Shown piece by piece: positions 51,552-62,260 of a stretch of DNA of 64,000 nucleotides. Every line of letters starts with the position of its first letter. Within the stretch, counting starts at the first letter, position 1. Both the position numbers and the translations under genes were made by a program. The notes under the pieces were generated by a model. That model did no database searches, had not been told where the DNA came from, and saw nothing but the letters and a program-made list of their open reading frames with translations. Origin of the DNA: a bacterium (GTDB lineage Bacteria > Margulisbacteria > Marinamargulisbacteria > GCA-2716485 > JAYNIM01); assembly GCA_038109055.1 (NCBI GenBank), contig JAYNIM010000001.1, positions 459,365-523,364 of the forward strand. The letters run 5' to 3'.

Positions 51552-52364
51552 CTATGTGCTTGTAGTTGTTAAATCAAATTCTTCATCTAATGATTCTAAT
51601 GAAATTGGATCTGCATCTAAAAAATCATTTTCTTCAAATAAATCTTCTTCAATACTATTTTCTATTAATTCCTCATTTGTACCTTTGATACTTTGCATAT
51701 TCTTTGTTTCTGTAAGCTTATTTAATTCTGTTGTGCTTTGAAAACTATCCTTACGTTCTTTATTTTGATAGGATTCTTCTCTGTTATTACTTTCTTCTTT
51801 GCTACCTACCTCTATCTCATCGTTTTCATAAAATTGCATATATAATGCGTTGAATATACTTTCATCTAAAGGCGTGTTTTTTACTTTAGTATTTAGTATT
51901 CTTGATTTTTCATTTTCAGAGTAATGTTTTAGAATATTTTCTTGTTCTTGAAGGTCTAATTTAGTCAAAAAAAAGGCGATTGTTTGTACCTGTTCATTTT
52001 TTAATATCTCGGCAATTTCACTGTAGCTTCTCTGTGACCTGTCTGGATGACTATCTGCTACCTCTAACAGGTCATCATCTTCTTCCGAAGTTTTTTCTTC
52101 TTCCTCTTCTTCCTCTATGTCATTTAAAAAATTGTCTTCCTGTATAAGACTCATATCTTCTGGTTGCTCTAGTGTAATATGATCTACTTCTTCAATAAAT
52201 TCTGCTATTAATTGGTTTAGCTCTTTTTGAGATGGCATTGGAGGTTGTTCTATTTTTAACAACCTAGTTAAAGTATCTTGCCGCATGTGCTTTAAAACAG
52301 CCTCTGCTTGATTACCTAAAACAGATACTATAACCTTTGCTTTTATATGATTTTCTAGTGTCAC
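51552..52364 (-). CDS. fliG: Truncated FliG homolog (N and M domains plus acidic tail)
   Basis: KAKVIVSVLGNQAEAVLKHM (FliG-N); EILKNEQVQTIAFFL (EHPQ-like, FliG-M); directly after fliF. Confidence 0.75.
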   Translation of the reverse strand: MTLENHIKAKVIVSVLGNQAEAVLKHMRQDTLTRLLKIEQPPMPSQKELNQLIAEFIEEVDHITLEQPEDMSLIQEDNFLNDIEEEEEEEKTSEEDDDLLEVADSHPDRSQRSYSEIAEILKNEQVQTIAFFLTKLDLQEQENILKHYSENEKSRILNTKVKNTPLDESIFNALYMQFYENDEIEVGSKEESNNREESYQNKERKDSFQSTTELNKLTETKNMQSIKGTNEELIENSIEEDLFEENDFLDADPISLESLDEEFDLTTTST

Positions 52365-53854
52365 GTAAGTACCTCTTCTTTTAATAATTCTTCTAGAGCA
52401 GCTGCTATATGTTCTGGGTTTGATGTTGCTTTTTTCTTTAAGTCATCTATATTTCTTTCTTTTTGAATCTCTTCTTTTAGTTGTTCAAATTTAGTGACTT
52501 CGTTTTGCTTTTTATTCAAAGAGCTACTGCCCTTTTTTCTTGACTTTAAGAAAAAATAAACCAAAGTTAAGCCCATAGACAACATGCCTATAACACCCCA
52601 ACTTTCAAAATATTCAAAGATAGTTTTACTTTCATCTTTATAAAAAGGGGCTTTATTAAGAAAAATAATATCACGCCCATCTTGATAGCCTATAATTGCG
52701 GCTATGGTAGAAAACACCTCTATTTTTTTTGCATCATCCAGCACAATATCTTCGTTATATTCATCGACTATTATACTCACCGTTGTTCGTTTAATTTCGG
52801 CACTGTTACCGTCTTTTGATGCAGTAATTTCTGCATTTGCAGCTACCTTAAATGAATTTCTAGGAAAAACTCCAGCCAATTGTTTATTAATTTTACTTAA
52901 TATATTATTTTCAAAATTTTCTTTTATTGTGAACCATTGTTTAATATTCTCAAAATTTGGAAGTATTGGCTGCAATTCTTTTATTTCATCTGATTTTTCT
53001 TCTTTCTTTTTATCTAAGAGTCTATCTTTCTCAAAGACTTTTATTTTTTGTTCATTTTTTATTTCATCTAAAATACCATAGGACAACTCAGTTCCTTGTG
53101 TGTCTACAACTGTTATATTTTTAAGACTTAAGCTTTCTACGGCTTTTGCGACGAGCTGCATAATACTATAAACCATGGTTGTGGTTAATGTTTTACCAGG
53201 TGTTTTTCTAACCAAAATACTTGCTGTTACTGGGGGCTGTTTTGATATAAATAGACGCTCTTTAGGCATTACAATTTGAACTTTAGCATCTTCGATCATT
53301 TCCAAACTTGTAATGACTTTTTCGAGTTCTCCAGACAAGGCTCTTAAATAACGTACTTTCTTATCAAATTCTGTGACGCCTAAAGTTTGAGTATTGTCTA
53401 ATAACTCATAGCCTTTAACAGCACCTGAAGGCAAGCCCTTTGTTGCGAGTAATACCTTTGCAGTTTCTAATTTTTTACTATCGACTGATAAACTAAAATT
53501 CTTTCCTTTTTGTGCCAAGGTAAATGAAATATTTGCAAAGCTTAATTCTTTAATGACTTGTGAGACTTGTGTCGCTGGTAATTGTGGGTATAGAACCAGG
53601 TATTTTATTTTCTTATCCCGCTTGGTTTTTTTCTTTGTTTGAGATTGTGCCTCATTTTTCCCCTTATTTCCCTCTAACCCAATGTCATCATTATCTAAAT
53701 TAACATAAAATAATAGGCCTCCTATTATTAAGGCTGTCATAATAATGGCAGCCATCCATATATTTTTTTTATGAAATAACCTAGATGTTTTATCTTGTGT
53801 TAAGTTATTTAAATCTTCTTCTAAATCATCAATTATCAAATTTTCTTCTGCCAT
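52361..53854 (-). CDS. fliF: Flagellar MS-ring protein FliF (divergent)
   Basis: GLPSGAVKGYELLD, GVTEFD...RALSGELEKVI, AKVQIVMPKERLF, PVTASI, two TM helices. Confidence 0.92.
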   Translation of the reverse strand: MAEENLIIDDLEEDLNNLTQDKTSRLFHKKNIWMAAIIMTALIIGGLLFYVNLDNDDIGLEGNKGKNEAQSQTKKKTKRDKKIKYLVLYPQLPATQVSQVIKELSFANISFTLAQKGKNFSLSVDSKKLETAKVLLATKGLPSGAVKGYELLDNTQTLGVTEFDKKVRYLRALSGELEKVITSLEMIEDAKVQIVMPKERLFISKQPPVTASILVRKTPGKTLTTTMVYSIMQLVAKAVESLSLKNITVVDTQGTELSYGILDEIKNEQKIKVFEKDRLLDKKKEEKSDEIKELQPILPNFENIKQWFTIKENFENNILSKINKQLAGVFPRNSFKVAANAEITASKDGNSAEIKRTTVSIIVDEYNEDIVLDDAKKIEVFSTIAAIIGYQDGRDIIFLNKAPFYKDESKTIFEYFESWGVIGMLSMGLTLVYFFLKSRKKGSSSLNKKQNEVTKFEQLKEEIQKERNIDDLKKKATSNPEHIAAALEELLKEEVLT

Positions 53855-53860
53855 AACTAC

Positions 53861-54439
53861 CTAAATTTGCATTGATATTAATTCTTTGAATGTTTGAGAT
53901 GCAGTTGAAATAACCGTGGTTGCAAAGCTTATTGCTAAGTTTAATTTTGTCGTTTCAATCGATACCTCCTCGATTGATACTTTCCCTTCTACATATTTTT
54001 GCATAAGGTCATTTACTCTAAATTCTAACTGGCTAACACTGTTTAATGATTTAACGGCTTGTTCACTAAAATACTGAAAAGGTGTGATCTCTAGTGCATG
54101 GTCAAAATTTAAATATTCTAATTTTTCCTCTTCTTTCGTTTCTGCATCAAATAGCTCTTTTGTTCTTTTTTTTCTATCTTGAATTGTTAAATTTGGATCA
54201 TTTGCAGTTGCTGCTTGTGCAATTAAGACATGTTGATTTAAGTTAATTGGGTTATTTTGTATTGTTACTTGTGGTAGTGGATTTTTTTCCTGAGTTTTAT
54301 TATCCATTATTCCATCTAACAATAACTTAAACTCATTTTTTATTTCTGGTTTTACGATATTTTGCGCAAAGGATGTTGCTGATGTTGTGGGGTTTACGTT
54401 GTTAAGAGGGTTTATATTAAGGGGACTTATATTACTCAT
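53861..54439 (-). CDS. fliE: FliE homolog with long N-terminal extension
   Basis: C-terminal FliE pattern YVEGKVSIEEVSI...FKELISMQI; between flgC and fliF. Confidence 0.78.
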   Translation of the reverse strand: MSNISPLNINPLNNVNPTTSATSFAQNIVKPEIKNEFKLLLDGIMDNKTQEKNPLPQVTIQNNPINLNQHVLIAQAATANDPNLTIQDRKKRTKELFDAETKEEEKLEYLNFDHALEITPFQYFSEQAVKSLNSVSQLEFRVNDLMQKYVEGKVSIEEVSIETTKLNLAISFATTVISTASQTFKELISMQI

Positions 54440-54440
54440 A

Positions 54441-54896
54441 TTATTTCATTAACTCTATTGCACTTTGATACATTGATTTGCTAACTTTTAATGCGGTTAT
54501 GTTTGCCTCATATACGGCCTCTGTAAATGTTAATGTCATCATCTCATTAGGCAGATTAACATTTGGATAATAAAAATAACCATTTTCATCCGCTTGAGGT
54601 GCGGCTGGATCAAAATAACGCCCGAAAGGTTCTGTACTTCTTTTTATTCCAGTTACTTTTACCCCGTCTTTAAATTTTTCTAGTTGAATATATTTCTTTT
54701 GATAAGGTAATCCTGTTTCTTCGTCTTTTAAAGTATTTAAGTTTGCAACATTTTCTGCGATAATCATCATTTTTGTTCTCTGTGCTAAAATCCCCGATAT
54801 ATTTATAGAAAATGAATCATCTAAATTTGAAACTGCATAGACTGAGTATGATACGTATACTGTTATTATACATATAATTGCCGTTATTCTATTCAT
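54441..54896 (-). CDS. flgC: Basal-body rod protein FlgC with N-terminal signal-like sequence
   Basis: SGILAQRTKMMIIAENVANLNT, PYQKK, FDPAAPQADENGY..YPNVN..EM, YEAN. Confidence 0.9.
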   Translation of the reverse strand: MNRITAIICIITVYVSYSVYAVSNLDDSFSINISGILAQRTKMMIIAENVANLNTLKDEETGLPYQKKYIQLEKFKDGVKVTGIKRSTEPFGRYFDPAAPQADENGYFYYPNVNLPNEMMTLTFTEAVYEANITALKVSKSMYQSAIELMK

Positions 54897-55309
54897 TATT
54901 GTTTACCTAGTGTCACTACTTTTCTTAAATTCTCTACGCGTTTTTTATAAAGTGTATATAACGCTTGTTGCCGTTTGTTGTTTTCTGCAATTTTTCCCAT
55001 AAAATGTTCTATCATTACTTTCGAAAAGTATGCTTTATCTTCTGTTTCAACATTAAACAAGCGCTCTAATTCGGCTCTATCTTCTGGTAATAAAATTGGC
55101 CTAAATTTTGGTGTTGTGGCATTTGCTATGTTGTATGAATATATCGCATGTTTTTGGTTACTATATTTTATAGCACGCTCTAATACCATCCCTGTTGAAT
55201 CTTCAAGTATATGTCCTTTTGTTTTACTTTTTGCTATATCTAGTTTTTGTGCTAGTAAGGACGTAGTTAAACTTATAAATATAGCTATTACCAGTATTCT
55301 CGCTATCAT
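54896..55309 (-). CDS. flgB: Basal-body rod protein FlgB with N-terminal signal-like sequence
   Basis: LERAI...NIANATTPKFR rod motif; precedes flgC. Confidence 0.78.
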   Translation of the reverse strand: MIARILVIAIFISLTTSLLAQKLDIAKSKTKGHILEDSTGMVLERAIKYSNQKHAIYSYNIANATTPKFRPILLPEDRAELERLFNVETEDKAYFSKVMIEHFMGKIAENNKRQQALYTLYKKRVENLRKVVTLGKQ

Positions 55310-55318
55310 ATTTTTTGT

Positions 55319-56044
55319 TTATATATAAATATCTTTTTCTTCTAATTCTAAATATCTCTTAATTAATTTTAACGCTTCCATATGGACTCTGCAAACTTTG
55401 CTTTTGGACACCTTTAATTTCTCTGCAACTTCGTTTTGTTTCATGTTACTTTGATAAATTAATTGTATAACTTCTTTCTTAGCTGATTCTAATTTATTCA
55501 CAATATTCCATATATTTGTTGTACTTTCAATATACGCTTCTTCTATATCTCTTCCACACGTATTGGCGGTAGAAAATTTCTCTAAATCGTTGGTATTTAG
55601 TAGATAGGATACGGATGACTGTGTCACGATCTCATTTAATGTTTTTTCAAAACTTTGTCTATTTGCTTTATTTTTATCGTCGAGTATATTCTCCGTAATC
55701 TCCATCATTTTTTCTTGTATATTTTCTCTATATCTTGCGTATTCAGCAGGATTCTTTTGTTTCCATTCCAACCTCAAATTATCCATTATCTGACCTTGAA
55801 TACGATAATATGCGTAGGTTTTAAAATTAGATTCTTTTTTTTCTTTGTATTGCACTTTCGCTTTAATCAAGCCTTCAATACCCCAACTGATTAAATCCTC
55901 TTTTTCAACACCTGAAGGTATTTTAGACTTCATAAATATTTTACTCGCAACTCCTTTAACTAGAATTAAATGGTCATCGATAAATGCTTGTGATACTTGC
56001 TGTTGTAATATCTCTTCTTTGCTATTCATATTTATGTTAGTCAA
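55319..56044 (-). CDS. fliA: FliA/WhiG-like (sigma-28 family) sigma factor
   Basis: EDLISWGIEGL, FKTYAYYRIQGQIMDNLR (region 2), QNEVAEKLKVSKSKVCRVH (region 4). Confidence 0.8.
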   Translation of the reverse strand: MTNINMNSKEEILQQQVSQAFIDDHLILVKGVASKIFMKSKIPSGVEKEDLISWGIEGLIKAKVQYKEKKESNFKTYAYYRIQGQIMDNLRLEWKQKNPAEYARYRENIQEKMMEITENILDDKNKANRQSFEKTLNEIVTQSSVSYLLNTNDLEKFSTANTCGRDIEEAYIESTTNIWNIVNKLESAKKEVIQLIYQSNMKQNEVAEKLKVSKSKVCRVHMEALKLIKRYLELEEKDIYI

Positions 56045-56672
56045 TTAATTTTTGTTTTGTTTTGTGTATATATATGATATCTCTTTCTTCATTATAATCT
56101 ATAGTATCAGATACGATTAAAAAAACAGATTCTTCTATTTTTTCATCTAAACTATTCTCTTGTGCTAATATACTTATACTCTTTTTTTGAATAGTGCTAT
56201 TATTTTTATTTAACTCTACTCTTGAGACTATTCTAAAGGATTTTTCTGGGAATGCTTCTCTCAACTTTCTTTTTACTCTATTGGATAAATTGTTTTCTAT
56301 ATGTTCTTTCCGTGAGAGTGATGCATCTTTGGGCAAAAATTTTTCCTCAAACTTTAATAAATCCATTTTTGCAAGTTTATCTGCCATTTCTTTAGCTAGC
56401 AGATCATTGATCATGTCACTTTGTGTCACATCTATATAATCGATATCTTCATCTATAAATATTTCCATTTTTTTAAAAGCAGGTTCCGTTAAAATCTTCT
56501 TGATAAAAAAAGACTGCATAAACTGGACTGCTTCTTTTCTTGTTCTGGGTTTTTTATTATTATACAAACTTGAAGAATAATGATTAGCCGCTAATGGTAT
56601 TCCTTCGTAACTCATTGATGGAATAGCATAACTAATAGCAATAATACCTATAATTATTATAATTTTGTTCAA
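56037..56672 (-). CDS. FlgJ rod-binding-like domain fused to a FliF RBM3-like domain, with signal-like N-terminus
   Basis: flgJ position after flgI; KEAVQFMQSFFIKKIL...DMINDLLAKEMADKLAK resembles the rod-binding domain; C-terminal ~90 aa align with this window's FliF. Confidence 0.65.
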   Translation of the reverse strand: MNKIIIIIGIIAISYAIPSMSYEGIPLAANHYSSSLYNNKKPRTRKEAVQFMQSFFIKKILTEPAFKKMEIFIDEDIDYIDVTQSDMINDLLAKEMADKLAKMDLLKFEEKFLPKDASLSRKEHIENNLSNRVKRKLREAFPEKSFRIVSRVELNKNNSTIQKKSISILAQENSLDEKIEESVFLIVSDTIDYNEERDIIYIHKTKQKLID

Positions 56673-57727
56673 ATGATTTCAATGTTTGCTATCAGTGCGC
56701 CTGCTTCTTTTAGTGCTTGTATAATTGAAATTAAATCTCTTGGAGAAGCACCAATTTCATTTAAAGTATCTACTAAGCTTGATAGTGTTTCGTTTGATTT
56801 TAAATATACTAACTTTTTCTTCTCTTCATCAATTTCTAACTGATTTTGCTGATCTGATATTGCACCTGCTTGTGGTTCTGTAATTCGAATAGATACAGCC
56901 CCATGTGTCAAGGCTACAGGGCTTAAACGCACCATTTCTCCAATTACAATGGTACCTGTTCTTTCATTAATGACAATTTTTGCTGATTGGTCAGGCTTTA
57001 CTGAAATATTTTCTAATTTTGCAATGGTACTAATTAAATTTGCTGAATTCAAATCTGTTAATGGTATTTTAATTTGTCTAGCATCTAATGCTTTTGCACC
57101 TAAAAAGCCCTCATCATGGATGGCATTAACTGCACGATCTATAGTTATAAAATTTGAATCATTTAAAACAATGGAGATATTGTGCACATCTGTAAAGGTG
57201 ACGGGAACTTCTTTTTCTACAATGGCCCCATCTGTGATAATTCCAACTGTTGGTTTGTTTTTAGCATACATAATGGTACTTGAACGCTGTGCTGCACCTC
57301 CCACTACAACCGAACCTTGGCCAACAGCATAAACTCTCATATCAGCACCTTTCAAGGGGGTCATCAATAAGGTACCTCCATCTAAACTAGATGCATCTCC
57401 GAGTGCTGATACCGTTAGTGAAATCCGTTGTCCTGACTTTACAAATGCGGGTAGGGTTGCTGTCACCATCACGGCTGCCGTGTTTCGTATATTACCAACA
57501 CTACCTACTTGTACACCCATTTTAACTAATAAATTTCTCAGTGCAGTTGGTGTAAAAAAGGTATTTCGACTGTCACCAGTACTTTTCAATCCAACCACTA
57601 AGCCAAATCCAATTAATTGGTTATCTCTCATTTCTACAATTTTTGAAATATCTTTTAACCTTACTTCTACAGCAAAGCTTGCTGTAGTAAAGCTAAATAA
57701 TACTAGTAGTAACAATGCTCGTTTCAT
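56669..57727 (-). CDS. flgI: Flagellar P-ring protein
   Basis: RLKDI, RDNQLIGFGLVVGL..TGD, AAVMVTATLP, INERTGTIVIG, DLISIIQALKEAGAL. Confidence 0.96.
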   Translation of the reverse strand: MKRALLLLVLFSFTTASFAVEVRLKDISKIVEMRDNQLIGFGLVVGLKSTGDSRNTFFTPTALRNLLVKMGVQVGSVGNIRNTAAVMVTATLPAFVKSGQRISLTVSALGDASSLDGGTLLMTPLKGADMRVYAVGQGSVVVGGAAQRSSTIMYAKNKPTVGIITDGAIVEKEVPVTFTDVHNISIVLNDSNFITIDRAVNAIHDEGFLGAKALDARQIKIPLTDLNSANLISTIAKLENISVKPDQSAKIVINERTGTIVIGEMVRLSPVALTHGAVSIRITEPQAGAISDQQNQLEIDEEKKKLVYLKSNETLSSLVDTLNEIGASPRDLISIIQALKEAGALIANIEII

Positions 57728-57729
57728 TT

Positions 57730-58338
57730 TTAAAATACCCAATTAAATATCCTACTTATTATTCCTGGATTCTGCTTGGCTGCAACTGGTCCCCCTCTAC
57801 CGCTTACTGAAACCTCAGCTTTTGCAATTTGATACGAAAAAATAGTATTCTTTGGAGTCACATCTGCAGGCCGCACAATCCCAGATACTCGAATAGTTTC
57901 GATGTCATGATTCACTTTAACCTTGTGTTCTCCCACTACAAATAAATTCCCGCTCTTTAACACTTCTGTCACAATTGCCGTTATAATTGCCTTTACGTTG
58001 CTTTTTCTCGTCGTTTGTCCATTGCCTTGATATCTATCACCCCCGCCTATAGAGATATCTCGTTTTTTCCTCACTCGTTCATTGCCTAATAAATTAGCCA
58101 CTTGATCCCAATTGTCTGCAAGTGATGAGGTTAGTGAGGTTGTTTTTCCTGAAGAGGTGCTCGCCTGTTGTACAGCGGAGGTGGATTCGGATACGTAGAT
58201 AGTAACGATATCCCCCACTGAAATTCTTCGTCGCGATGGTTGGTATATGCCTTCACTATAGGTTCTCCATAATGAATCTGCCCCAATAGATGTTGTTACT
58301 AAGATTAATAAACTAATCAATATAAATATTTTTTTCAT
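57730..58338 (-). CDS. flgH: Flagellar L-ring protein (no lipobox Cys)
   Basis: VGDIVTI.VSE, VTEVLKSGNLFVVGEH, SGIVRPADV..NTI.S.QIA, C-terminal PGIISRIFNWVF. Confidence 0.92.
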   Translation of the reverse strand: MKKIFILISLLILVTTSIGADSLWRTYSEGIYQPSRRRISVGDIVTIYVSESTSAVQQASTSSGKTTSLTSSLADNWDQVANLLGNERVRKKRDISIGGGDRYQGNGQTTRKSNVKAIITAIVTEVLKSGNLFVVGEHKVKVNHDIETIRVSGIVRPADVTPKNTIFSYQIAKAEVSVSGRGGPVAAKQNPGIISRIFNWVF

Positions 58339-59050
58339 CTATCACTTTTCCTTTTAATCGTTTTAGTGTTGATAATTTTGATGTTACCGGTATGTACCCA
58401 CCTATTTGACCATCCGCTAATGCTTGTCCATCAACTTTTATTTGCCCCCATTTTTTATTTATTAAAATTGATATAGGATCACCTTTTTGTATTGCTGGTT
58501 TTTCTTCTATGGCTAAATAATGTACCTGTGTATTTTTAGGAATACTACGTTTTGCTATTTTTCCTATCATTTCTTCCTTAGTAAATATATAATTCTGCAG
58601 GGTTGATAATTTTGAATAAATTAATTTTTCTTTCATGATTAAATCAGACTCTGTAATCATTTTACCTCGTTGAATCAAGTGCTTTGTGACAGGCATTTTT
58701 GTGGTTGCTTCTATTTTTAATAAAAGGGTCTGTCTTTCTAGAAGAGTCCCCTGCCGGTCATAGAAAAAAATCGGCTGTATTTGAGTCCCCAGTAAATCGT
58801 TGATTTTAGGGTCTGGACATTTAAAATAACTGGCTTTTTCAGGTATATCTAATTTTGTTAAATCAATTTTGAATGTCATTTTAAAGGTCATTAATTCTGC
58901 ATTTATATTTCCCAGAACATGCTCTAATTTTTGTCGATAGACAGTTCTGACTTCTTTTTTGATATCTGCTAGACTCACCGCAGCATGAATCGTATTTATC
59001 GCTAGACTCACAATCAAACTAATAATAAAAAAAAGCCTACTTAATGTCAC
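58313..59050 (-). CDS. flgA: P-ring assembly chaperone FlgA
   Basis: Signal peptide, SAF-like region, IQKGDPISI, GQALADGQIGGYIPV; between flgG and flgH. Confidence 0.85.
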   Translation of the reverse strand: MTLSRLFFIISLIVSLAINTIHAAVSLADIKKEVRTVYRQKLEHVLGNINAELMTFKMTFKIDLTKLDIPEKASYFKCPDPKINDLLGTQIQPIFFYDRQGTLLERQTLLLKIEATTKMPVTKHLIQRGKMITESDLIMKEKLIYSKLSTLQNYIFTKEEMIGKIAKRSIPKNTQVHYLAIEEKPAIQKGDPISILINKKWGQIKVDGQALADGQIGGYIPVTSKLSTLKRLKGKVIDEKNIYID

Positions 59051-59834
59051 TTCCAGCCTTTAGCATATCATCGGATGCTTTCATTGCTTTAATAACCGTT
59101 TCAAAGGAACGTTGACACATCAGCATTTCCATCATTTCAGAGATAATATCTACATTTGAAAATTCCAATGATCGTTGCCTGATAGACCCCATGCCCTGTT
59201 CACCCGGTATAATTAATTGTGGATCCCCAGAGCTTTCTGTTTCTTGCATTAAATTTTGGCCAATATCTTTTAAACCTTCTGGATTCATAAACTTTGCTAA
59301 GACCATCTGTCCAATTTCTTGTTGTTGAGTATCTCCATCTAATAAGGCAAAAATTCGGCCTTCTTGATTCACAATAATTTCTCTTGCTTCTAAAGGGATA
59401 GTTAATGGTGGATCTAAGGGATGTCCGCTAGAATTTAATACTCTTCCTTGACTGTCTACATGAAAATTTCCTGCTCGACTATAAGCGGCGCTTCCATCTG
59501 GCAATTGAAACTGAAACATACCATTCCCTTCGATTGCCATATCCATTTGCCTGTTTGTTACTTCGATTGTTCCAGTACTAAAGTTCTTTGTAATACCCAC
59601 GAACCGAACACCTTGACCAAACTCGATATATTTTTTTCTACGTTTGCTGCTACCTGTTTCTTCATCAGACTCCGTCACAGCTCTTTCAAAAATTAATGGA
59701 AACAAACTTTCCATCTCTAAGCGTCTTTCCTTATATCCTGGTGTTTGTGCATTTGAGATATTATTTGTAATAACCTGCATTTTTCGTTGAAACGAATATA
59801 ATGCTGATTTTGCCATATGTAATTGAGATAACAT
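59037..59834 (-). CDS. flgG: Distal rod protein FlgG
   Basis: NNISNAQTPGYK, GQGVR, DMAIEGNGMFQ, YSRAGNF, LEFSNVDIISEM; AAGGAG RBS. Confidence 0.92.
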   Translation of the reverse strand: MLSQLHMAKSALYSFQRKMQVITNNISNAQTPGYKERRLEMESLFPLIFERAVTESDEETGSSKRRKKYIEFGQGVRFVGITKNFSTGTIEVTNRQMDMAIEGNGMFQFQLPDGSAAYSRAGNFHVDSQGRVLNSSGHPLDPPLTIPLEAREIIVNQEGRIFALLDGDTQQQEIGQMVLAKFMNPEGLKDIGQNLMQETESSGDPQLIIPGEQGMGSIRQRSLEFSNVDIISEMMEMLMCQRSFETVIKAMKASDDMLKAGSDIK

Positions 59835-59852
59835 AATTAAACTCCTTTTATT

Positions 59853-60659
59853 TTAATTTGGTGCGGCAATTTGTGTCGCTGTATTGGCTGATCGTGCCAA
59901 TACTTTAAGAACCTTTGCATTTGATTGATACCCATTTGTTGCATAGGTTATATCTCCTACTAAGGCTTTTACTACATTATTTTCTTCTATATGACCTTGT
60001 ACAACTTTATAGTACTCAACCCCACTCAAAATTTCAGCCTCTTCTACTAGTACAAATACGGATCCATTCAGTGAATTGAGCTTTTGCATTTCTTTATAGG
60101 AGGCAAATACCGCTACTTTTATACGATCTACTTCTTCACCATCTACGTATATCATTCCAGATCGTGACACAACAACATCGCCTTTAGGCAAGTATATTGG
60201 CCCTTTATCACCTAATACGGGATAATTTCCGGCAACAGTGACTAAACGGTCACTCCCATCTCTCGTGAAGCGCCCATCTCGGGTATAACCCAGAGTTGTT
60301 TTTAATTGTATAACAAAAAAACCTTTACTCATCGCATCTATGTAAAAATCTAATGGTCTATGTGTTTCAACGACCGGACCTGCTCGCCAACGATAAAAAG
60401 GAATGGCATCTATTCGTTTCTCTCCATTCTTATCAATCATTCTTGAATTAAACGCGCCTGTTTCGATAAAGCCTGGTGTGTTTACATTCATGGTGTAAAA
60501 CAACCAATTACTCCACTGAATTTGAAAAGCCCTCATTGCTTGCATACTTCCATTAGCGGCAATATCTTGAATCTCACCATAATCCTCATAAGAAGAAAGG
60601 TTACTCGTTATGATAAGTAGACATACTATCAAGGTCTTTATTTTATTAATACCGTTCAT
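59853..60659 (-). CDS. flgF: Rod protein FlgF-like with N-terminal signal-like sequence
   Basis: NVNTPGF, ETHRPLDFYI, YTRDGRF, G.PVLG, QGHIEENNV; precedes flgG. Confidence 0.82.
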   Translation of the reverse strand: MNGINKIKTLIVCLLIITSNLSSYEDYGEIQDIAANGSMQAMRAFQIQWSNWLFYTMNVNTPGFIETGAFNSRMIDKNGEKRIDAIPFYRWRAGPVVETHRPLDFYIDAMSKGFFVIQLKTTLGYTRDGRFTRDGSDRLVTVAGNYPVLGDKGPIYLPKGDVVVSRSGMIYVDGEEVDRIKVAVFASYKEMQKLNSLNGSVFVLVEEAEILSGVEYYKVVQGHIEENNVVKALVGDITYATNGYQSNAKVLKVLARSANTATQIAAPN

Positions 60660-60674
60660 TTATCTCTATTCTCA

Positions 60675-61046
60675 TTATTTTCTTTTTAGTTTCTTATTAA
60701 TCTTATTTCGTTTATCCGATAATTTTTCAAGTTGATACGCAAAGGCTAACACCTCTGCTATTATAGCATATAATTTTGATGGTATATGTTGATTCAATTC
60801 TAATTTAGACAACAAATTACTTAATACGGGATCTTCATACAGAGGTATTTTGTGATCTTCTGCAATATGTAAAATCATTTCAGCAATTGAGGCTTTACCA
60901 GATGCAACGATTTTTGGGGCCTTGTCTTTTTCAATATCATATTTTATTGCGACTGCTTTTAACTTTTCTTTTTTGGGTAGATTTAACTGATCAATACGTT
61001 TCTTAAAGTTGATCTTATGTTTCTTCTGATTCTCGTTTGCCATCAT
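60675..61046 (-). CDS. Stand-alone FlhB C-terminal-domain protein (EscU/YscU/HrcU family)
   Basis: KAVAIKYD...APKIVASG...IAEMI...IPLYED..L...L...IP..LY.IIAEVLAF; no TM domain. Confidence 0.9.
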   Translation of the reverse strand: MMANENQKKHKINFKKRIDQLNLPKKEKLKAVAIKYDIEKDKAPKIVASGKASIAEMILHIAEDHKIPLYEDPVLSNLLSKLELNQHIPSKLYAIIAEVLAFAYQLEKLSDKRNKINKKLKRK

Positions 61047-62260
61047 GCCTCTGTACTAATATGTGTTAACCTATCTAAATCAAAATTTGGACATAACAAT
61101 TCTTTTACCGGGATCTTTTTATCCATATATTTCACACCTTTAACTTTATAGTTAATGGCTTCCATTTGCTTTATTAAATCTGGAACCAAACTTGAAATTA
61201 TCCGTTTTGTTTCTCCGTCTTTGCTATTAAACGTATATATTAGCGTATTCTCTATGACATTGATCACAATACTTAATTCCCCAATATTTTCTGTTTCAAA
61301 CTTAATGATCATGGTTGTTTTATCTTCATTTATCTGTGAGTTTTGTTTATTATTTCGTTTTTGAATGAGGATATCCATATTATTTACTGGCGAGGCTAAT
61401 AAATTTGGTATTTGCCAAAAATGAAACAAGTCTGCCTTAATCATAAACTGTGACTCTTTGGATAAGACCAAATAAGCTAAACTATGATCAATATATTTTT
61501 CTAGTGATTTTTGCGTTTTCTCAAAAACTTCTTTGAGGCTTTGTTGTTGATATACATCTTTTATTTGAGTCAGTATTTTTTTATCCATCCCTTTTAGAAG
61601 ACTCAAAAACAGTTTCGACTCTTTCATTAACCCAACATATTTTTCAACTTTAAAATTCAGCATGTTCTTTTTATCAAATCTGTAAAATTGTAACTTCTCA
61701 TCTATTGCCGCTACTATCGCCGCTAAATGTTGCGTAAAAGCAGGACTCAATCCATCCTTAGAGGCGTGCATCGCTGCTTGTAATGCTTGTAAGTTTTGCT
61801 GTAATTGTTTGACTGTCCCTGTTAAATCTAATTCATTTGATAAAAATTGTTTTAACACAGAAATACTTTTACCGTTCCCTTTTAAATTTTTAGCAATTGA
61901 TAAGACGATAGACTCTAAATCCTTTGATGACGTCTTTCCTTTCATCAAATTATCAATTATTTCAAAATAATCTTGATTCAAAGGAACTCCATAAGAAAGC
62001 ATCGTCATGCCAATCCTCATATTATCAACATTGGGACTCTTACCAAAACTTAAGAGTTGATTCATGATGTCATCTTTCGAATAGGGCTGTCGTTTACTTT
62101 CTGTTTTTTTTGTTGTTGAACGCACATCTTCTGATTGTGCTGTATGAATAGATGATACATTCGTTTCGTGACTTGTCTTTGATAGGGATCTACTTTGAGA
62201 TTCCTCCGGAAGCTTGGGAGGTTGCGCACGATGTGATGAACCGGGAACTGATAAATTCAT
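61043..62260 (-). CDS. FliK-like protein (C-terminal hook-length-control-type domain)
   Basis: Low-complexity N-terminus; C-terminal IIKFETENIGELSIVI...TFNS...L.KQMEAINYKV; coupled to the FlhB-like gene. Confidence 0.65.
   Translation of the reverse strand: MNLSVPGSSHRAQPPKLPEESQSRSLSKTSHETNVSSIHTAQSEDVRSTTKKTESKRQPYSKDDIMNQLLSFGKSPNVDNMRIGMTMLSYGVPLNQDYFEIIDNLMKGKTSSKDLESIVLSIAKNLKGNGKSISVLKQFLSNELDLTGTVKQLQQNLQALQAAMHASKDGLSPAFTQHLAAIVAAIDEKLQFYRFDKKNMLNFKVEKYVGLMKESKLFLSLLKGMDKKILTQIKDVYQQQSLKEVFEKTQKSLEKYIDHSLAYLVLSKESQFMIKADLFHFWQIPNLLASPVNNMDILIQKRNNKQNSQINEDKTTMIIKFETENIGELSIVINVIENTLIYTFNSKDGETKRIISSLVPDLIKQMEAINYKVKGVKYMDKKIPVKELLCPNFDLDRLTHISTEA

Follow-up and report, generated by a model that had tools for sequence, protein, structure and literature searches.

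Predicted Sec signal peptides on proximal rod and FlgJ-like proteins of a flagellum-derived type III system in Margulisbacteria

Background

In the accepted view, axial proteins of the flagellum pass along the type III channel and are assembled at its tip. A flagellar-type locus in which several rod proteins appear to begin with a Sec signal peptide raises the question of which route these subunits take and how they would reach the rod. Such a locus lies in a 64,000-nucleotide window (positions 459,365 to 523,364 of contig JAYNIM010000001.1, assembly GCA_038109055.1) from an uncultured, marine member of the Marinamargulisbacteria. The phylum is poorly known and stands next to the Cyanobacteria. 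One of its members lives as a symbiont inside cells of Trichoplax (PMC6784892), and the main text of PMC6349859 makes no mention of flagella or secretion.

Results and discussion

Signal-peptide-like N-termini of rod proteins

All genes given here with coordinates lie on the minus strand (-). We identified predicted signal peptides in FlgC (54441..54896, 151 aa; Sec/SPI signal at residues 1-21, 54834-54896), FlgB (54896..55309, 137 aa; residues 1-20, 55250-55309), a FlgF-like protein (59853..60659, 268 aa; residues 1-23, 60591-60659) and a FlgJ-like rod-binding protein (56037..56672, 211 aa; about residues 1-21). The N-termini quoted for these four proteins in the initial annotation all match the sequence; each has an n-region with a net charge of +1 or +2, and FlgB, FlgF and the FlgJ-like protein pass a permissive small-residue rule at positions -3 and -1. 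A peptide of this n-h-c type would be taken by SecA/SRP, and the genome encodes SecY and signal peptidase I (LepB). Three ordinary Sec substrates of the same cluster, FlgI (P ring, 56669..57742), FlgH (L ring, 57730..58338) and FlgA (P-ring chaperone, 58313..59050), served as positive controls and the distal rod protein FlgG (59037..59834) as internal control. Neither FlgG, nor the hook, nor FliE (53861..54439), which has a long polar N-terminal extension, carries a signal peptide.

Signals were scored with a home-made n/h/c test on orthologues within the class (Marinamargulisbacteria-like). It was passed by 40 of 44 FlgC, 37 of 43 FlgB, 34 of 36 FlgF and 28 of 40 FlgJ-like proteins, rates similar to those of FlgI, FlgH and FlgA, and by 0/43 each of FlgG and FliE, in agreement with the initial annotation. 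FliG failed as a negative control, with 21 false positives among 59 sequences, and inspection by eye restored 16 rows and overruled one ahead of the tree and motif counts given below. Database homologues of FlgC with independently called starts passed in 102 of 120 cases, most of the 18 misses beginning inside the h-region or without a basic residue. A genome-wide excess of signals was ruled out, 238 of 1467 proxy ORFs passing (16 %, membrane proteins included). Aligned across orthologues, the extensions are kept in kind, not in sequence. The N-terminus of a second flgF paralogue is also signal-like as judged by eye, and the protein in the FlgD slot forms a fifth signal-bearing case besides FlgB, FlgC, FlgF and the FlgJ-like protein.

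Profile matches place the start of the family models 25-35 residues into FlgC, FlgB and FlgF: position 3 of TIGR01395 falls at FlgC residue 28, position 4 of TIGR01396 at FlgB residue 39 and position 7 of NF009280 at FlgF residue 33, and the FlgG match begins at model position 1-2. FlgC reaches 102.6 bits against a TIGR01395 cut-off of 102.1, and E values are 2e-5 for FlgB (TIGR01396) and 2.5e-23 for FlgF (TIGR02490), the latter having strongly diverged helices and no Flg_bb_rod or Flg_bbr_C match. The FlgJ-like protein, encoded after flgI, is a probable rod cap whose identity as FlgJ is weak; it has no muramidase domain, its C-terminal extension occurs only in this genome, and neither a fold search (no match at E ≤ 0.001) nor a PDB profile search (no FlgJ match) recovered FlgJ. 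Of 41 aligned family members, 10 match the rod-binding domain PF10135 at E ≤ 0.1, with a best E value of 9e-6; the window protein gives no match.

Loss of a gate-recognition-motif-like segment

The published type III signal combines a few small non-polar residues with a gate motif, which in rod subunits exported early lies about 30 or more residues from the N-terminus. Hydrophobic residues at the N-terminus are required in early substrates (PMC8983047). Generalising the pattern FxxxPhi from Salmonella FlgD 36-FLTLL-40, we found it in 38/38 signal-less FlgC versus 0/63 signal-bearing FlgC, in 13/14 versus 3/36 FlgF and in 47/48 versus 7/44 FlgB, while FlgG keeps it in 66 of 68 cases, including the window protein; in FlgC of the window the segment is deleted. 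These counts are anchored by position, looser windows giving 29/44 for FlgB by catching the F of a PGF motif, and nine signal-less FlgB, 3 FlgF and 3 FlgG rows were left out as unanchorable; like the signal and collar counts, they come from related genomes and are not independent. Of 13 FlgD-slot proteins without a signal, 8 have FxxxPhi at residues 32-48, a position adjoining the gate motif at residues 36-40 of Salmonella FlgD (PMC8983047). The segment resembles a type III gate-recognition motif and likely docks rod proteins at the export gate, although we infer its equivalence to the Salmonella motif from pattern and position alone, and its loss may be structural because it lies within the structural Dc/L-stretch region.

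FlgC cleavage site and the FliF collar

Cleavage of FlgC is predicted at the canonical start-Met column or no more than a few residues away from it. Among signal-less FlgC an ATG lies near the usual start in 34/38 and an ATG or GTG exactly on the start column in 36/38 (read from the listing), whereas signal-bearing FlgC have an ATG within 4 codons in 10/63 (a script count that includes one mis-anchored row, L090) and exactly on the column in 2/63, with A-Q or A-D junctions there instead. Cleavage at the predicted site would restore a normal N-terminus. A structural model of FlgC superposes on Salmonella proximal-rod chains with a TM score of 0.88 by target and an rmsd of 1.7-1.8 Å, and matches 7CG0 in Foldseek with an E value of 1.7e-11; the mature protein keeps the rod fold of D0 helices and beta domain.

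The proximal rod normally sits inside a collar of FliF (PMC11673145; 10.1101/2020.12.05.413195). The window FliF (MS ring, 52361..53854) is without the beta-collar insertion in RBM3, having 26 residues where flagellar FliF has 86-103. Measured from the alignment (3 rows skipped, 2 mis-anchored; an earlier regex measure had skipped 58 rows), the collar spans 86-103 aa in 11/11 flagellar FliF versus 18-57 in 68/70 FliF of this system. Families f38-f50, which have no signals, are without the collar too, so its loss is at most permissive.

Route of the signal-bearing proteins

Rerouting to Sec, as the initial annotation proposed, is supported by extensions that are kept in kind, by a cleavage site that would give FlgC back its N-terminus and by the loss of the gate-motif-like segment where a signal is present. 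From these sequence features, Sec export of FlgB, FlgC, FlgF and the FlgJ-like protein is likely, as are their cleavage by signal peptidase I and their incorporation into the rod from the periplasmic side. The rod in question belongs to a type III machine of flagellar descent that has no filament.

The missing FliF collar also lends itself to an explanation that we regard as unlikely, in which FlgB, FlgC and FlgF are exported by Sec and cleaved but lie outside the rod core, surrounding a FliE-FlgG tube in the periplasm as a collar, adaptor or chaperone that takes over from the lost FliF collar. It would accommodate the divergence of the FlgF helices, the duplication of FlgF (all copies examined are signal-like) and a FlgB about 35 residues shorter than its flagellar counterpart. 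Several features point back to the rod, however: both D0 helices are still present in FlgC, which can be superposed on rod chains of Salmonella, its predicted cleavage site restores a normal N-terminus, and gene order is kept.

The start codons bear on a second, very improbable alternative, dual routing or wrong starts, whereby short forms from internal starts would use the type III route and the long forms would be minor products or annotation artefacts. Internal ATG codons occur at codon 41 of FlgB and codons 39 and 42 of FlgF, and the FlgJ-like gene has starts at codons 20 and 52; several FlgB orthologues keep a Met at the usual start, and the 7 of 44 signal-bearing FlgB with FxxxPhi fit this reading. 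Most of the annotated gene boundaries proved right, with flgB and flgC overlapping in TAATG at 54894-54898 and flgB beginning 9 bp after the gene for a fliA-like sigma factor (55319..56044). The ATGA overlap given for the FlgJ-like gene and flgI needed correction, the actual start being a TTG at 56672 and the overlap TTGA; this start is the least secure of the four because further in-frame starts are present at codons 20, 36 and 52 and there is no obvious Shine-Dalgarno site. Against short forms, flgC has no ATG, GTG or TTG between codon 1 and codon 43, as the initial annotation had noted of its region before the core, and the hydrophobic frame has stayed open in some 40 genomes despite their divergence, whereas in most signal-less relatives a stop follows after only a few codons. 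The short forms would, moreover, lack the gate-motif-like segment.

Still less probable are uncleaved anchors that would hold parts of the proximal rod at the inner membrane, next to the export gate. In the AlphaFold model a single unbroken helix (residues 2-51) takes in both the extension and the D0 helix, as an anchor would have it, and membrane anchoring had been entertained initially alongside Sec export. Hydropathy disfavours it: the rod and cap extensions have 9-residue Kyte-Doolittle (KD) medians of 2.8-3.1, but their best 19-residue medians are 1.7-1.9, like the 1.9-2.1 of FlgI, FlgA and FlgH and unlike the 2.99 of the FliF anchor, and a 19-residue value ≥ 2.5 is reached by 1/165 extensions versus 58/73 FliF anchors. 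By this measure the hydrophobic stretches do not reach the length of a membrane anchor; small-residue -3/-1 sites lie at the mature boundary, and FlgF and the cap are far from the membrane. Least probable of all, an altered type III signal that still sends the proteins through the gate would suit the intact gate and the hydrophobic requirement of early substrates, but the published signal includes the gate motif, lost here, and an n-h-c peptide would go to SecA/SRP.

Stepwise gain of signals

The gains appear to have been stepwise and repeated. The signals were initially thought to have arisen four times independently; on a 78-tip tree repetition stands for FlgB (five steps) and the FlgJ-like protein (three gains), whereas FlgC and FlgF show one gain each, on the same branch, with weak support (0.32). 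Five divergent signal-bearing FlgC representatives (P0134, P0137, P0138, P0149 and P0238) share 39-55 % identity with their nearest loci.

A filament-less machine

Type III export genes are intact in this genome (FlhA/FlhB/FliOPQR/FliHIJ), and the cluster also encodes a stand-alone FlhB C-terminal-like protein (60675..61046) and a FliK-like protein with a Flg_hook domain at its C-terminus (61043..62260). FlhA is present in 135/146 genomes of the phylum and 49/55 of the class; with the export set complete here, a lost type III gate was rejected as an explanation for the Sec signals. We found no flagellin and no FlgK match over the cut-off in this metagenome-assembled genome (MAG, 93 % complete), and flagellin in 1/55 genomes of the class (MAGs). 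The hook-like protein is short (287 aa), and candidates beside its gene for needle, translocon or effector proteins had no Pfam match. FliG (51552..52364) matches the N domain (below cut-off) and the M domain, with no match to the torque domain FliG_C, and three MotAB pairs are encoded in separate modules. The system thus retains an export gate, an ATPase complex, L/P rings and stators of a motility flagellum, with no flagellin filament, FlgK junction, beta-collar MS ring or FliG torque domain detected. In 13 genomes it occurs alongside a true flagellum. Taken as a whole, the machine probably does not rotate and serves as a conduit for secretion. An injectisome would have a secretin outer ring replacing the L/P rings; here FlgH, FlgI and FlgA are encoded in the cluster, and three secretin genes lie elsewhere in the genome.

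Assembly with Sec-delivered subunits could proceed as follows. FliE would exit through the gate and seed the rod; without the collar, about 16 FlgB/C/F sites would face the periplasm, and mature subunits with a near-normal N-terminus could therefore dock from outside. A Sec-delivered cap would bind the rod tip, and FlgG and the hook, keeping the channel route, would grow under it and through the P/L rings. Collar loss would have come first, since signal-less relatives are without it too, followed by the route switch of FlgC and FlgF and then, repeatedly, of FlgB, the FlgJ-like protein and the FlgD-slot protein.

Comparison with known systems

Buchnera filament-less basal bodies and flagellum-derived injectisomes keep the type III gate and ATPase, have lost the filament and build only part of their axial structure via the gate; to our knowledge neither has Sec-routed rod subunits, and the system described here differs in keeping L/P rings and a short hook. 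With the ordinary flagellar rod it shares protein families, gene neighbourhood, the FlgC fold and signal-less FliE and FlgG, but it differs in the cleavable-type signals on FlgB, FlgC, FlgF and the FlgJ-like protein, the lost gate-motif-like segment, the absent FliF collar and a FlgJ-like protein without muramidase. Sec-exported FlgA, FlgH and FlgI (and FliP) have n-h-c signals and hydropathy like those of the rod proteins here (for Sec export of FlgH and FlgI see PMC11673145), yet they form rings or act as chaperones around the rod, whereas here axial, channel-lining subunits bear the signal. In the polar motor of Vibrio, FlrP carries a Sec signal and reaches the proximal rod, to which it binds, from the periplasm (10.64898/2025.12.04.692373); it is an accessory leucine-rich-repeat protein outside the rod, whereas here the signals are on rod subunits themselves. 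In Salmonella a spontaneous fusion of the FlgA signal diverted a flagellar reporter to Sec (PMC13344023). We found no report in the literature of Sec signals on flagellar rod subunits; the FxxxPhi loss, the collar-less FliF, the intact export genes without flagellin or FlgK, and the stepwise gains with the FlgD-slot case are also new here.

Conclusions

More tentatively, and with doubt somewhat the heavier, a secretion machine without collar or filament may be common to the whole phylum Margulisbacteria, having arisen from the flagellum independently of injectisomes. In it, one subunit after another would have exchanged its type III docking motif for a Sec signal in repeated events, first FlgC and FlgF and later FlgB, the rod cap and the hook cap; the inner rod and the two caps would be built from outside, and the channel would serve FliE, FlgG, the short hook and secreted cargo. 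A Sec-built inner rod, if true, would break a textbook rule, and if a lineage in nature does send rod subunits through Sec, export route and assembly would be separable. Orthologues can be paired so that one bears a signal and the other does not, in some cases as the flagellar and second-system copies of a single genome; such pairs would let nature itself test the gate-recognition-motif model and the idea that the MS-ring collar forces inside-out assembly. The findings point to an undescribed flagellum-derived export machine in this phylum.

Sec-type signals on rod proteins

The filament-less, flagellum-derived cluster occupies positions 51552-62260 on the minus strand in the order fliK-like, flhB-C-like, flgF, flgG, flgA, flgH, flgI, flgJ-like, fliA, flgB, flgC, fliE, fliF, fliG, in a genome of 1.82 Mb that is 93% complete. 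On recheck the N-termini of FlgC, FlgB, FlgF and FlgJ-like given in the initial annotation were correct, as was its statement that FlgC has no other Met ahead of its conserved core (no alternative start lies before codon 43); the flgJ-like gene keeps the N-terminus quoted, although its overlapping start codon is TTG and not the ATG claimed. Potential internal starts lie at codon 41 of FlgB (ATG), codons 39 and 42 (ATG) and 10 (TTG) of FlgF, and codons 20 and 52 of FlgJ-like (ATG). The first 25-35 residues of FlgC, FlgB and FlgF precede their family-model matches, and FlgG is matched from residue 1-5 onwards. Within the cluster, FlgJ-like has a C-terminal extension found in this genome alone (56037-56350) in which Foldseek detects a weak likeness (E 2.8e-3, rmsd 15 A) to the ring-building motif of FliF RBM3; FliE (53861-54439) has a polar N-terminal extension, long in most class members (frames of 157-270 aa, against 105-131 aa for outer lineages); and at 60675-62260 a stand-alone FlhB C-terminal protein adjoins the FliK-like gene.

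FlgC was present in 137 of 146 phylum genomes and the same gene cluster was found phylum-wide. Of the 54 genomes besides this one in the Marinamargulisbacteria-like class, 43 are covered by the 80 regions that we fetched; 22 of 30 small loci were also used (8 duplicates were left out). Signals were scored with a home-written n/h/c test permitting any in-frame upstream start, which 238 of 1467 proxy-proteome ORFs pass as background. Within the class it was passed by FlgC (40/44), FlgB (37/43), FlgF (34/36) and FlgJ-like (28/40), and by the Sec controls FlgI (38/40), FlgH (36/38) and FlgA (32/37). FlgG and FliE, reported earlier to lack signal peptides, indeed gave 0/43 each, and there were no passes for FliA (0/39), FlhB-C (0/30) and FliK-like (0/30); FliG passes (3/36 in the class, 21/59 overall) are false positives. 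For later counts 16 rows were rescued and 1 overruled by eye. Tandem duplicates of flgG at eight loci (L055, L063, L066, L079-L081, L086, L087) lack signals, and those of flgF at two (L049, L072) bear them on both copies. An unlinked second flgF paralogue (contig C1:261928-262737, L143), present in several genomes of the order, has a signal-like N-terminus by eye, as do five relatives.

In families f38-f50 the test was passed by FlgC in 0/26, FlgB in 0/26 and FlgF in 1/14, the single pass, from an upstream frame, being rejected by eye. Two systems coexist in each of thirteen flagellated genomes (G057-G069); signals occurred in 0/12 FlgC and 0/12 FlgB of the flagellar copies fetched, and in 13/13 FlgC and 0/13 FlgB of the second system. 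As a guess, f38-f50 may be WOR-1/Saganbacteria and G057-G068 Termititenax-like. Among database FlgC homologues 102/120 passed; of the top 150 among 7611 representative matches 21 passed, including the false positive P0203, and the remainder mostly start at the normal position. Five signal-bearing representatives (P0134, P0137, P0138, P0149, P0238) have 39-55% identity to the nearest fetched loci and may lie outside Margulisbacteria.

The gene between fliK-like and fliM in outer lineages is FlgD-like, with an FlgD Tudor match of 6e-6 in 1/6 and a weak one in another, and the class protein in this slot matches it weakly (hhalign 52%, E 1.4e-4, 41 columns). A signal-like N-terminus occurs in 4 of the 11 class loci holding it, this genome included (C2:197090-197716; L138:11093-11716), three by the n/h/c test and one (L163) by visual inspection, starting from an internal Met; it adds a fifth case to the four, though weakly identified as FlgD. 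A probable second FliK-like gene, judged by position, lies in the export cluster (C2:197713-198348), its relatives matching Flg_hook.

Probably cleavable signals and loss of a gate-motif-like segment

The initial annotation had allowed for membrane anchoring of these proteins, a reading made unlikely by both hydropathy and alignment. Median best 19-residue hydropathy was 1.93 for FlgC, 1.85 for FlgB, 1.72 for FlgF and 1.82 for FlgJ-like, in the range of FlgH/A/I (1.87-2.09), vs 2.99 for the FliF anchor. In an NxAN-anchored alignment the start Met of signal-less FlgC lines up either with the small-residue site of signal-bearing FlgC (A|DVF type) or with the residue following that site (A|Q-SLDDA type); ATG is retained in the Met column by only 2/63 signal-bearing FlgC. 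The rod/cap N-termini appear to be of the cleavable type, and cleavage is probable; the genome encodes SecY and LepB.

Rod and hook subunits are described as docking on FlhB by a gate-recognition motif (36-FLTLL-40 in FlgD) situated at least 30 residues from the N-terminus (Bryant et al., PMC8983047). Generalised here as FxxxPhi and scored at the matching position, it was present in 38/38 FlgC without a signal vs 0/63 with one, 13/14 vs 3/36 FlgF (3 unanchored rows left out) and 47/48 vs 7/44 FlgB (9 unanchored signal-less rows left out), these counts coming from related, non-independent genomes. The linker in signal-bearing FlgC is shortened from 16-27 to 6-8 residues in 58/63, the other 5 being of normal length with the pattern lost. 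FlgG retains FxxxPhi in 66/68 (3 unanchored rows left out), and hook-like proteins keep the F in the 18 rows displayed. In the FlgD slot the FxxxPhi pattern occurs in 0/4 signal-bearing proteins (first 40 mature residues) and 8/13 signal-less ones, at residues 32-48. The segment presumably corresponds to the Salmonella gate-recognition motif; the region is also structural (Dc/L-stretch, PMC11673145).

A filament-less, collar-less machine

FlhA, FlhB, FliR, FliQ, FliP, FliO, FliN, FliM-like, FliH, FliI and FliJ are intact and encoded elsewhere in the genome; FlhA was found in 135/146 genomes, and all 13 flagellated genomes gave at least 2 matches. Flagellin was found in 15/146 phylum and 1/55 class genomes, FlgK gave no match above the cut-off, and no C-terminal torque domain was detected in the cluster FliG. 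The hook-like protein (267-302 aa) lacks a signal in 17 loci, and its gene precedes fliM in outer lineages. The Salmonella proximal rod, described as 6 FliE, 5 FlgB, 6 FlgC and 5 FlgF, is enclosed by the FliF beta-collar (PMC11673145; 10.1101/2020.12.05.413195), which the cluster's FliF lacks: its RBM3 strands lie 86-103 residues apart in 11/11 FliF of flagella, vs 18-57 in 68/70 of the filament-less system (2 rows mis-anchored, 3 skipped). The collar is missing from signal-less lineages too.

Elsewhere in the genome MotA/MotB occur in three separate modules (C1:38152-42006, L140; C2:122379-127259, L141; C2:148011-152051, L142), each of which also encodes a protein with FliG_C; TPR proteins adjoin them. 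Two have a FliF-like neighbour (one a weak Pfam match, one by eye), and in the third a protein of 475 aa, signal-like at its N-terminus, has FliG_C at its end; the modules may generate rotation or force with no link to the rod cluster. At C8:72214-79533 (L139) the short hook-like gene is preceded by five genes that have no Pfam match (136, 172, 876, 273 and 596 aa), an order retained in several class genomes; their products may be type III substrates or replace the tip or filament. Large proteins of 1602 and 1129 aa with low-complexity N-termini (C8:59811-64619 and C1:256436-259825), the end of one resembling a Ser/Thr kinase domain by eye, are possible secreted cargo.

Gain of signals and proposed export route

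For six concatenated proteins (FastTree, 78 tips, flagellar FliF/FlgC as root), parsimony gave 1 step for FlgC, 1 for FlgF (28 tips without score), 5 for FlgB (7 gains if irreversible) and 3 for FlgJ-like (38 without score), the branch joining signal-bearing lineages having a support of just 0.32. The earlier proposal of four independent events calls for some adjustment, FlgC and FlgF each requiring a single gain on one shared branch. Signal states are nested: where FlgC, FlgF and FlgB were all scored, 14 loci have none, 6 C+F, 2 C+F+B and 28 all four.

The sequences themselves show the signals, the loss of motif and collar, and the gene content. We consider it most likely, with reasonable confidence, that the signal-bearing rod proteins would be exported by Sec, cleaved and docked from the periplasm onto the collar-less basal body, while FliE, FlgG and the hook would retain type III export; incorporation into the rod and a secretion role for the machine are suggested. 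The main rival, rather improbable in our judgement, is that the exported proteins now lie outside the rod lattice. The FlgC model, with a pLDDT of 91.5, resembles proximal-rod chains of Salmonella (E 1.7e-11; TM 0.88 by target; rmsd 1.8 A).

Full-text searches of an open-access library, as distinct from subscription papers, turned up neither rod proteins with Sec signals nor this system; no description appeared in passages of PMC6784892 or in a term search of PMC6349859. An FlgA signal fused by deletions to a flagellar reporter is described as giving Sec export (PMC13344023). In Vibrio the Sec-signal protein described on the rod is an accessory (10.64898/2025.12.04.692373), whereas here the rod proteins themselves bear the signal. 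The Sec-type signals on rod parts are real, conserved and plainly contrary to the textbook rule.
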